Below, one piece after another: positions 2,723-3,934 of a stretch of DNA of 4,217 bases. Position 1 is the first letter of the stretch; each line of letters starts with the position of its first letter. A program made the position numbers and the translations under genes. Under the pieces are notes generated by a model. It was given only the letters and a program-made list of their open reading frames with translations. It ran no database searches and was not told the origin of the DNA. This DNA comes from a virus (lineage: Duplodnaviria > Heunggongvirae > Uroviricota > Caudoviricetes): IMG/VR virus record IMGVR_UViG_2671180846_000026; one strand, given 5' to 3'.

Positions 2723-2886
2723 TTGGGGTCGTACTGAAGTTCCCCGCCGGATGCCTCTTGCAGGCGCATCGCGCGACCTTCAGGAACCAGTTCCCCCCAT
2801 GCAGCAACGCTTGCCAGCCTAACTCCTGCGACATTGGCAAGCTTTGTTTTGCTGCCAAAAAACGCTATAGCATCAATTTTCAACAT
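2723..2886 (-). CDS. Cro-like HTH regulator (DicC/Cro family), 3' end hidden in the N-run
   Basis: ATG at 2886..2884 with SD (AAGGGG, 6-nt spacer). Translation MLKIDAIAFFGSKTKLANVAGVRLASVAAWGELVPEGRAMRLQEASGGELQYDP has an HTH (GSKTKLANVAGVRLASVAAW) and resembles recalled DicC. Divergent from the repressor gene across a 76-bp region. Confidence 0.65.
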
Positions 2887-2894
2887 ATCGAACC

Positions 2895-2912
2895 CCTTAG
2901 ATTTTCCTAAGG
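2895..2912. promoter_or_regulatory. Operator-like site 1 (perfect inverted repeat CCTTAG-ATTTTC-CTAAGG)
   Basis: 6-bp perfect inverted repeat with 6-bp spacer. Overlaps the predicted Cro-like SD and transcript start. Shares CTTAG-N-TTTT-N-CTA with sites 2, 3 and 4. Confidence 0.5.
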
Positions 2913-2941
2913 AAACTAGATCGTAGAGAAACCTAAGTCAA
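2913..2941 (-). promoter_or_regulatory. Putative sigma70 promoter for the Cro-like early operon (pR analogue)
   Basis: Minus-strand -35 TTGACT (plus 2936..2941), 17-nt spacer, -10 TAGTTT (plus 2913..2918). Predicted start near 2906 gives a ~20-nt leader carrying the SD. Confidence 0.4.
2921..2938. promoter_or_regulatory. Operator-like site 2 (18-mer; reverse complement ACTTAGGTTTCTCTACGA)
   Basis: 15/18 identical to site 3 when reverse-complemented. Lies in the spacer/-35 of the pR-like promoter and over the -35 of the pRM-like promoter. Confidence 0.5.
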
Positions 2942-2954
2942 GAAAAATTAGAAT
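2926..2954 (+). promoter_or_regulatory. Putative promoter for the repressor gene (pRM analogue), possibly giving a leaderless or near-leaderless mRNA
   Basis: -10-like TAGAAT at 2949..2954 ends 8 nt before the ATG at 2963. No SD before the ATG. Weak -35 (GAGAAA, 2926..2931) as in activator-dependent lambda pRM. Confidence 0.3.
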
Positions 2955-2962
2955 TACCTAAT

Positions 2963-3370
2963 ATGAAAAACGAAACCTTCGGTGCTCGCCTCTTATACAG
3001 GCGAAAAAAATTAAAACTGTCTCAGGCCGCATTAGGTAAGCTGGTCAAAGTGGCTCACGTAACAATTTCTCAATGGGAAAGAGATGAAACACAGCCAGCG
3101 GGGAAGAGATTATTCGCACTGAGCCAGGCGCTTCAGTGCTCGCCGACTTGGCTTCTTTTTGGAGATGAAGATAAGCAACCAGGCGAACCGATCCCAGATA
3201 ATCAGCCAGTCAATCTGACAGAAGATCAAAAAGAGTTGCTTCAACTGTTCGACGCACTGCCTGAGTCAGAGCAAAAGGCTCTGTTGTCAGAGATGCGTGC
3301 TCGAGTTGAGAATTTCAACAAACTTTTTGAAGAACTACTCAAAGCTCGCAAAAGAAGCGCAAATAAATAA
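2963..3370 (+). CDS. dicA: HTH-type prophage repressor, DicA-like (XRE-family HTH, no LexA-like S24 peptidase domain)
   Basis: 135-aa ORF, stop TAA at 3368..3370. HTH (LSQAALGKLVKVAHVTISQWERDE) and C-terminal segment (CSPTWLLFGDEDKQP...LPESEQ...EMRARVENFNKLFEELLKARKR) closely resemble recalled E. coli Qin-prophage DicA (also 135 aa), roughly 60% identical by eye. A homologue rather than K-12 dicA itself; symbol denotes family. Confidence 0.8.
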   Translation: MKNETFGARLLYRRKKLKLSQAALGKLVKVAHVTISQWERDETQPAGKRLFALSQALQCSPTWLLFGDEDKQPGEPIPDNQPVNLTEDQKELLQLFDALPESEQKALLSEMRARVENFNKLFEELLKARKRSANK

Positions 3371-3404
3371 CCCCCCTTTTTTTCGCAACTCTCTGTAATA
3401 AAAA

Positions 3405-3433
3405 GCACAAACTTTCAAATACTTGTGTTTTTT
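3405..3433 (+). terminator. Weak candidate intrinsic terminator downstream of the repressor gene
   Basis: Stem GCACAA (3405..3410) pairs with TTGTGT (3423..3428), five Watson-Crick pairs plus one G-T, 12-nt loop, followed by a T-run to 3433. AT-rich and weak. Confidence 0.2.
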
Positions 3434-3443
3434 ACATCAAGAA

Positions 3444-3461
3444 GCTTAGGTTTTTCTACGC
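3444..3461. promoter_or_regulatory. Operator-like site 3 (GCTTAGGTTTTTCTACGC)
   Basis: 14/18 identical to site 1 and 15/18 to reverse-complemented site 2. Immediately upstream of the -35 of the downstream promoter. Confidence 0.5.
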
Positions 3462-3468
3462 AAAAAGC

Positions 3469-3498
3469 TTGACCATAACTCTTAGGCTATTCTAAATT
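3469..3498 (+). promoter_or_regulatory. Putative sigma70 promoter for the downstream plus-strand operon (pL / dicBp analogue)
   Basis: -35 TTGACC (3469..3474), 18-nt spacer, -10 TAAATT (3493..3498). Flanked and overlapped by operator-like sites 3 and 4. Sits about 80 nt upstream of the 3578 start. Confidence 0.45.
3480..3497. promoter_or_regulatory. Operator-like site 4 (TCTTAGGCTATTCTAAAT), degenerate copy
   Basis: 12/18 match to site 3 including the CTTAGG half-site. Overlaps the spacer and -10 of the pL-like promoter. Confidence 0.35.
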
Positions 3499-3510
3499 CT
3501 ACTCATCAAG

Positions 3511-3524
3511 ACACCGCACGGTGT
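3511..3524. promoter_or_regulatory. 14-bp perfect palindrome ACACCG-CA-CGGTGT in the predicted 5' leader of the 3578 ORF
   Basis: Perfect inverted repeat seen directly. Just downstream of the predicted transcript start. Unrelated in sequence to the CTTAGG operator motif. Confidence 0.35.
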
Positions 3525-3577
3525 TCTCAGCAAACAGTTCCGCTACCCGGCGTTAAGGGGAAGCAGAGGATTTCTCA

Positions 3578-3934
3578 GTGGGCGAAGTCAAACATCAGAA
3601 TGGAAGGCGTCCAGGGATCAGCAAAGAAACAGCGATGGCGCTTTATATTGATATCAGCGCCATTGCCGGACAGGTAAGAATTATCAGAGCGGTAACTAAG
3701 CGGTATGCGCCTTTACTTCAGAAAGTCTCTGGTGAGTGCACCGAAGATATTGTCAACGATTTCGTCATCAAACTGCGAGGACTCATCTTCAGTTACAAGG
3801 TGACCACAATTTTTGCAGATGGCTCCCGCGAAACTGTCAGAGCCCTGCGGCTTAAAGGATGTGTCAAAGACTTAGCCACCACATTCTGGGCAAGAAAACT
3901 TGATTGTATTCATAACCAATTTCCTCTCGAGTAA
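3578..3934 (+). CDS. Hypothetical protein (118 aa from GTG; 99 aa if ATG at 3635), first gene of the putative repressor-controlled early-left operon
   Basis: Only long ORF in either strand over 3371..4005. GTG at 3578 preceded by AGAGGA with 7-nt spacer. Contains several rare Arg/Gly codons (AGA x4, AGG, GGA), typical of acquired genes. I do not recognise the protein. Confidence 0.5.
   Translation: MGEVKHQNGRRPGISKETAMALYIDISAIAGQVRIIRAVTKRYAPLLQKVSGECTEDIVNDFVIKLRGLIFSYKVTTIFADGSRETVRALRLKGCVKDLATTFWARKLDCIHNQFPLE

Follow-up and report, generated by a model that had tools for sequence, protein, structure and literature searches.

The stretch of DNA analysed here (4,217 nucleotides, IMG/VR record IMGVR_UViG_2671180846_000026, Caudoviricetes; called the window throughout) is the immunity region of a defective lambdoid prophage that is found at ompW in Escherichia coli O26:H11 and its relatives. 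It carries five 18-bp dyads, named S1 to S5, around the gene of a DicA-like repressor. Judged from the sequence and its homologues, it is highly probable that the five sites are the operators of a prophage immunity switch of the type found in phage P22 and in Qin, a prophage of E. coli K-12. The arrangement of such sites in P22 has been known since about 1980. For Qin, a description dates from 1988 (Bejar et al., cited in PMC10448788). The finding does not alter how immunity regions are understood at present, and the arrangement as such is already known from both systems; the operator variant itself is uncharacterised. Three things are specific to the window: this variant, its correlate in helix 2 of the repressor, and a well-formed site like the second right operator (OR2) that is absent from Qin. 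A literature search found no publication that describes the operators of this allele, and no usable DicA motif was present in the E. coli transcription factor chromatin immunoprecipitation (ChIP) compendium (PMC12059191) or in Reg-Seq (PMC7567609).

A first-pass annotation of the window had reported four copies of the motif CTTAG-N-TTTT-N-CTA, one of them a perfect inverted repeat, with two copies between the divergent cro-like and repressor genes and two at a downstream promoter. All four copies lie where they were placed. The pattern CTTAG-N6-CTA matches at 2896–2909 (+), 2924–2937 (−), 3445–3458 (+), and 3481–3494 (+), and the first match can also be read on the − strand because the site is palindromic. 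In each of the corresponding 18-mers S1 to S4 (Table 1; CCTTAGATTTTCCTAAGG, ACTTAGGTTTCTCTACGA on the reverse strand, GCTTAGGTTTTTCTACGC, and TCTTAGGCTATTCTAAAT), the dyad lies exactly at the centre. The reported consensus stands as CTTAG-N6-CTA at all four sites, but its TTTT is exact in S1 and S3 only; the centre is TTTC in S2 and CTAT in S4. The inverted repeat of S1 is perfect in its 6-bp arms (CCTTAG/CTAAGG), but not in the central ATTTTC, which is asymmetric. Relaxing the pattern to TTAG-N6-CTA exposes a fifth site at 2948–2961. This site, S5, reads ATTAGAATTACCTAAT at 2947–2962 (18-mer AATTAGAATTACCTAATA) and lies directly before the dicA ATG. The layout is three plus two, and not two plus two, the third of the right operator (OR) sites having been overlooked. 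The centres of S1, S2, and S5 are spaced 26 and 25 bp. No third left operator (OL) site comparable to P22 OL3 was found within 3 mismatches upstream of S3, where 3419–3437 is the 3′ arm of the hairpin that follows dicA.

Table 1. Coordinates of the operator-like sites, predicted signals, and regulatory genes in the window.
Feature	Sequence or elements	Position	Strand	Remarks
S1 (OR1/Oc equivalent)	CCTTAG-ATTTTC-CTAAGG	2895..2912	.	core 2897-2910
S2 (OR2/Om equivalent)	ACTTAG-GTTTCT-CTACGA on reverse strand	2921..2938	.	core 2923-2936, one core mismatch
S5 (OR3/Oa equivalent)	AATTAG-AATTAC-CTAATA	2946..2963	.	relaxed-pattern match, homologue of P22 OR3 and K-12 Oa
S3 (OL2 equivalent)	GCTTAG-GTTTTT-CTACGC	3444..3461	.	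core 3446-3459
S4 (OL1 equivalent)	TCTTAG-GCTATT-CTAAAT	3480..3497	.	core 3482-3495
Predicted dicC promoter (PR-like)	-35 TTGACT (2941-2936), 17-nt spacer, -10 TAGTTT (2918-2913)	2913..2941	-	sequence and colinearity
Predicted downstream promoter (dicBp/PL equivalent)	-35 TTGACC, 18-nt spacer, -10 TAAATT	3469..3498	+	consensus scan
Hairpin and T-run after dicA		3399..3434	+	-9.6 kcal/mol, z = -3.9
DicC/Cro-like gene		2723..2886	-	Pfam P22_Cro 2e-12; 5' part alone visible
DicA-like repressor gene, 135 aa		2963..3370	+	N-terminal P22 c2-type helix-turn-helix, short C-terminal domain

The number of these sites is far above what would arise by chance. CTTAG-N6-CTA is found at four sites in the window against 0.07 expected, and none of 200 dinucleotide-preserving shuffles equalled this count. 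The operator claim also came through a search of 152 kb of the source genome, made up of the locus with its surroundings (18.9 kb), a further 34 kb that complete the prophage and its flank, and two chromosomal pieces of 50 kb each, in which the pattern occurs nowhere else. In the same sample, the symmetric core TTAG-N6-CTAA is present at three of the five sites and has a single unrelated occurrence.

The parallel with the OR and OL operators of lambdoid phages, which had been drawn in the first pass, is upheld by the flanking genes, of the P22_Cro and HTH_3 families, and by a site-for-site alignment with Qin and with a P22-type immC region. The Cro-like gene (dicC) and the repressor gene are divergent (− and + strand) and separated by a gap of 76 bp. 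Over the full length, the repressor shows 63% identity to K-12 DicA and the Cro-like protein 83% identity to K-12 DicC. The first 69 residues of the repressor match the N-terminal domain of P22 c2 (E = 1e-21, 41/68 identical, 60%), and the matches include the operator co-crystal entries 2r1j and 3jxb (E about 1e-21). A LexA/S24 cleavage domain was not found in the 135-aa protein, in which Pfam recognized helix-turn-helix families only; we therefore place it in the DicA subgroup and not with the canonical CI/c2 repressors. Its K-12 orthologue, DicA, has no Ala-Gly cleavage site, and an antirepressor relieves it (PMC10448788).

The P22-type immC was read from phage Emek, the c2 N-terminal domain of which is 100% identical to that of P22. 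It is colinear with the window: OR1, OR2, and OR3 correspond to S1, S2, and S5, and OL2 and OL1 to S3 and S4. In P22, OR1 is beside the cro start, OR2 overlaps the −35 element of PR (…TAGTCAAG), and OR3 abuts the c2 ATG (ATTTAAGATGACTTAACT-ATG). The overlap of OR2 with the −35 reads …TTTAGTCAAG in the P22 type and …CTAAGTCAAG in the window. The hexamers TTGACC and TAAATT recur in the PL promoter of P22, where OL1 lies between the two and OL2 is upstream. In both systems the operators are 18-bp dyads that share T3-T4-A5, and Cro is of the P22_Cro family. In its 18-bp site, the P22 repressor makes contact with positions 2–7 and 12–17 and recognizes the four central bases by indirect readout (PMC4267663). 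At the window sites, the conserved CTTAG/CTAAG bases coincide exactly with these contacted positions, and the centres are A/T-rich. The half-sites themselves differ (ATTTAAG in P22, CCTTAG(G/A) in the window), as do the repressors, P22 c2 being a 216-aa protein with a RecA-sensitive C-terminal domain that the 135-aa repressor does not have (PMC10448788). The left arm of P22 contains a third OL site and a nutL with boxA and boxB, followed by gene 24, whereas neither a third OL site nor an N-like gene was found in the window.

Qin and the window share orthologous DicA and DicC proteins and a gene order that ends in dicF and dicB, and their −35 hexamers agree, with TTGACT at the dicC promoter and TTGACC at the promoter on the dicB side. 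They also share the operator core TTAG-N6-CTAA at the same five positions, although the Qin sites are degenerate at the S2 and S3 positions. In Qin, Oc (TTGTTAGTCATAACTAACAA) is at the dicC start, Oa precedes the dicA ATG, and one site lies in the dicBp spacer; S1 aligns with Oc as the TTAG-N6-CTAA dyad at the dicC start. The second site is far better formed in the window (one core mismatch in S2) than in Qin (two in Om). Among the sites of Qin and the window, only Qin Oc has experimental support: genetics show that DicA acts via Oc, and one substitution in CTAA abolishes binding (Yun et al. 2012, PMC3441716). DicA represses dicC as well as dicBp, the latter 22-fold, and DicC is needed for switching (PMC10448788). 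ChIP-seq of K-12 DicC gave peaks on both sides of dicA and the palindrome TT(A/C/T)G...C(G/A/T)AA (PMC11430063).

The PaaR2/YdaS region of CP-933P from E. coli O157:H7 has a similar design. It too belongs to a defective lambdoid prophage; its repressor is short and non-cleavable, and the divergent gene for a Cro-like protein is followed by ydaT. Its 18-bp palindromic operators, at PR/PRM and at a PL-like promoter, have been footprinted; the repressor gene is leaderless, and the region behaves in a bistable manner. It differs in its repressor family, which has low similarity to DicA, in its half-site (GTTTAGTAA), in having four equally spaced repeats, and in a toxin–antitoxin pair within the repressor operon (all PMC8630535).

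The positions of the sites are conserved. Scans with a DicA alignment gave 19 genomic and 80 viral loci, and 64 of them have distinct flanks and a ...SQWE... recognition helix. In 64/64 loci, sites are centred at about −59 and −8/−9 from the repressor ATG; loci of the window type have an additional site centred at −33. Nearly all of the 64 have one or two sites around the downstream −35, and these are 35–36 bp apart where both occur. When 12 diverse representatives were aligned, the invariant columns were the TTAG/CTAA half-sites, the two −35 boxes, and the ATG, while the intervening sequence varied. The half-sites of S1 are invariant in all 12.

The outer bases of the operators change together with the repressor. 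Helix 2 reads SQAAL in this allele and in relatives of 69–85% identity, and their operators are of the form C-TTAG…CTAA-G. With TQR in helix 2 (Qin, E. albertii, E. ruysiae, Citrobacter, and Rahnella), the operators are TG-TTAG…CTAA-CA. Repressors with the recognition helix ISLWES go with TTGAG-type half-sites, and those with FKWEN with TAAC- or TTAAC-type half-sites. The DicC-like proteins vary in parallel with operators and repressors, and such joint change is the usual picture of lambdoid immunity types. Between the window and Qin DicA, the core is identical, but there are systematic differences in the flank (C or G), the spacer, and helix 2; outer base and spacer read CTTAG-(G/A)TTTT in the window and TGTTAG-(T/C)CATG in Qin, and helix 2 is SQAAL and TQRSL, respectively. 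The earlier suggestion that the motif is specific to one immunity type consequently holds for the flanking base and the spacer, but not for the TTAG/CTAA core, which is common to Qin DicA. We tentatively propose, giving it slightly less than an even chance, that the allele (CTTAG-...TTTT...-CTAAG with SQAAL) would form a separate immunity that does not cross-react with the Qin-type DicA (TGTTAG-..CATG..-CTAACA with TQR). This specificity would be determined by a single outer base contact (Arg or Ala in helix 2) and by indirect readout of the spacer. If this is true, the several DicA-type prophages of a single E. coli genome would operate orthogonal switches, acting on separate copies of dicF/dicB. 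The operators are a parts list for asking whether DicA-type prophages within one cell cross-regulate each other, and the covariation with helix 2 provides a clean, if small, set of data on the recognition code of the P22 c2 type.

The promoters to which the sites are related were predicted from hexamers and homology. The dicC promoter was assigned because it is colinear with K-12 dicCp (TTGACT-17-TATCTT), the start site of which has been mapped (PMC3441716), and with P22 PR (TTGACT-17-ATAATT). As first proposed, the sites overlap the PR-like element and the Shine–Dalgarno sequence of the cro-like gene. S1 starts 3 bp downstream of the predicted −10, covers the predicted start, and touches the dicC Shine–Dalgarno AAGGGG (reverse complement of 2893–2898). 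S2 fills the spacer between −35 and −10 and overlaps the −35 by one base. The placing of two sites at the downstream promoter was also correct: S3 ends 9 bp upstream of its −35, and S4 is in the spacer, overlapping the −10. S5 adjoins the dicA ATG. It contains a −10-like TAGAAT (2949–2954) 8 nt before the ATG, with no Shine–Dalgarno sequence, and its position predicts a leaderless or near-leaderless dicA mRNA. A −10-like hexamer (TAGAAT, TAGCAT, TAAGAT, or TATATT) is kept 7–9 nt before the repressor ATG, with no Shine–Dalgarno, in every immunity type examined, including P22. This suggests that mRNAs of DicA-family repressors are leaderless, as is that of paaR2 in CP-933P. The paaR2 gene was shown to be leaderless, and the cI gene of phage lambda has been described with the same structure (PMC8630535).

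The switch may be pictured as follows, with binding by DicA and DicC, the order of occupancy, activation, and cooperativity taken over from the homologous systems. Dimers of the 135-aa repressor would bind the 18-bp dyads through the P22 c2-type helix-turn-helix. Contacts would fall on the bases at positions 2–7 and 12–17 (CTTAG.../...CTAAG), with indirect readout of the A/T-rich centre. Repressor on S1 and S2 would block the dicC promoter, which would also drive ydaT and the replication genes; repressor on S3 and S4 would block the PL-like promoter of the ydfC-dicF-dicB operon of cell-division inhibitors. As has been reported for Oc in K-12, repressor at S1 may in addition activate the dicA promoter, which is weak and near-leaderless. 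The DicC/Cro-like protein would occupy the same operators, chiefly S5 over the −10 and start of dicA, and would turn dicA off. Such a shut-off of dicA by the Cro-like protein would make the switch bistable. As the repressor has no LexA-type cleavage domain, induction would come from an antirepressor or from spontaneous switching, as in Qin (PMC10448788).

Several points weigh against this picture. Support for binding at the operators of this allele comes by way of homology. The prophage is defective (PMC8112680), and the switch may therefore serve only to silence toxic genes. The −10 of dicC, TAGTTT, is weak, and a strict consensus promoter scan of the window missed the dicC promoter. Further points concern S2 and S5. 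The K-12 equivalents, Om and Oa, are not bound by DicA in vivo when alone (PMC3441716, data not shown there). S5 is nearly unchanged (TTAGAATTACCTAA) across loci whose other operators differ in their flanks, and its own flanks show no covariation. It holds the −10-like hexamer, and the conserved half of S2 overlaps the dicC −35, so part of the conservation of both sites may be due to promoter constraint and not to operator function.

Taken to its end, this argument leaves S1, S3, and S4 as the only functional repressor operators. S5 would be conserved mainly as the dicA −10 and leaderless start and the right half of S2 mainly as the dicC −35; the dyads at both would be residual or would be read by DicC alone. 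Consistent with this, loci with changes in the other operators still keep a −10-like hexamer 8–9 nt ahead of the ATG (TAAGAT, loci L009–L013), and the left half of S2 is missing in loci of the L003/L007 type. We nevertheless hold such a division of the five sites to be rather unlikely. The TTAG-N6-CTAA core of S5 is perfect in every locus of the TTAG type. In position and in half-site sequence, S2 and S5 are homologous to OR2 and OR3 of P22, both of which are bona fide operators of c2 and Cro. DicC represses dicA in K-12 and O157 (PMC11430063, PMC6915034), and this needs a site at the dicA promoter.

A second alternative is that the sites are read chiefly by a factor other than DicA, either DicC alone or a host regulator such as YjdC. 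[quoted passage not shown] We consider this very improbable, as the operator flank co-varies with helix 2 of DicA, binding at K-12 Oc depends on dicA (PMC3441716), and deletion of dicA derepresses dicBp 22-fold, whereas deletion of dicC has no effect (PMC10448788). The T-rich spacers and the AT-rich regions in which they lie might suggest that the repeats reflect chance or merely the composition of AT-rich intergenic DNA, but this explanation has next to no probability and was rejected on the shuffles, the lack of a further copy in 152 kb, and the positions kept in 64 loci of several genera. Operators of a P22/Qin-type immunity switch thus remain our preferred reading of the five sites.

E. 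coli O26:H11 str. 11368 and many other O26 and related genomes match the 878 bp around the operator sites at 100% identity; for the ‘PPompW’ prophages of O145:H28, the identity is 99.8%. PPompW, which is defective and lambda-like, has ompW as its integration site (PMC8112680). The prophage occurs in a large share of E. coli, among them O26, O145, and O157 Shiga toxin-producing strains; the 878-bp region is covered to at least 80% in 751 of 5,426 complete genomes. The full window was matched at up to 11 places per E. coli genome and the 878-bp region at up to four; given these multiple matches, several DicA-type regions probably coexist in one cell.

Gene content was derived from the open reading frames, Pfam, and the RefSeq annotation of the identical stretch. 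The genes on the minus strand encode a DUF1627 protein, a P-like protein, a DnaT-like replication protein, a YdaT-family protein, and the 75-aa DicC-like protein of the P22_Cro family. On the plus strand, the HTH_3 repressor gene is followed by a gene for a 99-aa hypothetical protein and by ydfC. In the source genome, the plus-strand operon extends to dicF (Rfam, 76.7 bits) and dicB, which are 2.0–2.4 kb downstream on the same strand. The downstream promoter is predicted to be that of a ydfC-dicF-dicB operon. The hairpin after dicA is probably an intrinsic terminator that parts dicA from this promoter; a strict terminator scan of the window missed it because the stem is AT-rich. A run of 49 N (2674–2722) replaces 125 nt of the matching O26:H11 genome (locus L001, 8876–9000). 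These 125 nt contain the dicC stop codon and the overlapping ydaT start, and coordinates to the left of the run differ from those of the genome by an offset of 76 nt. The run hides the 3′ end of dicC with its stop codon; the annotation of NC_013361 gives a 75-aa Cro/CI regulator. An open reading frame of 228 aa at 2200–2886 reads through the run and was rejected as an artefact. No RNA family of Rfam matched within the window at E ≤ 1.

The surrounding prophage (loci L001 and L104, NC_013361 1737282–1790000) is degraded by insertion sequence elements. It carries genes for the type III secretion system effectors nleA, nleH, nleF, nleG, and espM1, the paa adhesin gene, and a hokD/sok module. A gene annotated with a ‘phage antirepressor N-terminal domain’ is located at 3823–4341 of L104. 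It is a candidate that could act as inducer of the non-cleavable repressor, by analogy with Rem in Qin.

A leader at 3505–3570 (+; also at 2440–2500 of locus L002), downstream of the predicted dicBp/PL-like promoter, is conserved far above its surroundings across Escherichia, Citrobacter, and other genera. The Qin dicBp leader is nearly identical to it. The leader consists, in order, of CATCAAG, a hairpin ACACC-GCAC-GGTGT, TCTCAGCAAACAGTTCCGCTA, and a second hairpin CCC-GGCGTTAA-GGG. As judged by eye, both stems show compensatory changes between loci. The first stem is ACACC/GGTGT, AATCAC/GTGGTT, or GTAACCAC/GTGATTAC, and the second is CCCC/GGGG, CCCTG/CAGGG, or GCCG/CGGC, with a conserved second loop GCG(T/A)TA. 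RNAalifold on automatic leader alignments gave only 4 pairs in one alignment and no structure in another. The leader occupies the position of nutL (boxA/boxB) in P22; no N-like gene follows it, and Rfam contains nothing that matches it. Candidate functions are antitermination, in the manner of nut or put elements, and a role in stability.

A mosaic breakpoint is located at about 3571, directly after the second hairpin of the leader. In the window and 13 other loci, the leader is followed by the unrelated gene for the 99-aa hypothetical protein (3635–3934), which has no Pfam match. In most loci with an identical repressor, as in Qin, it is followed by ydfA (GGGGAAATGAGGTCAGCATG).

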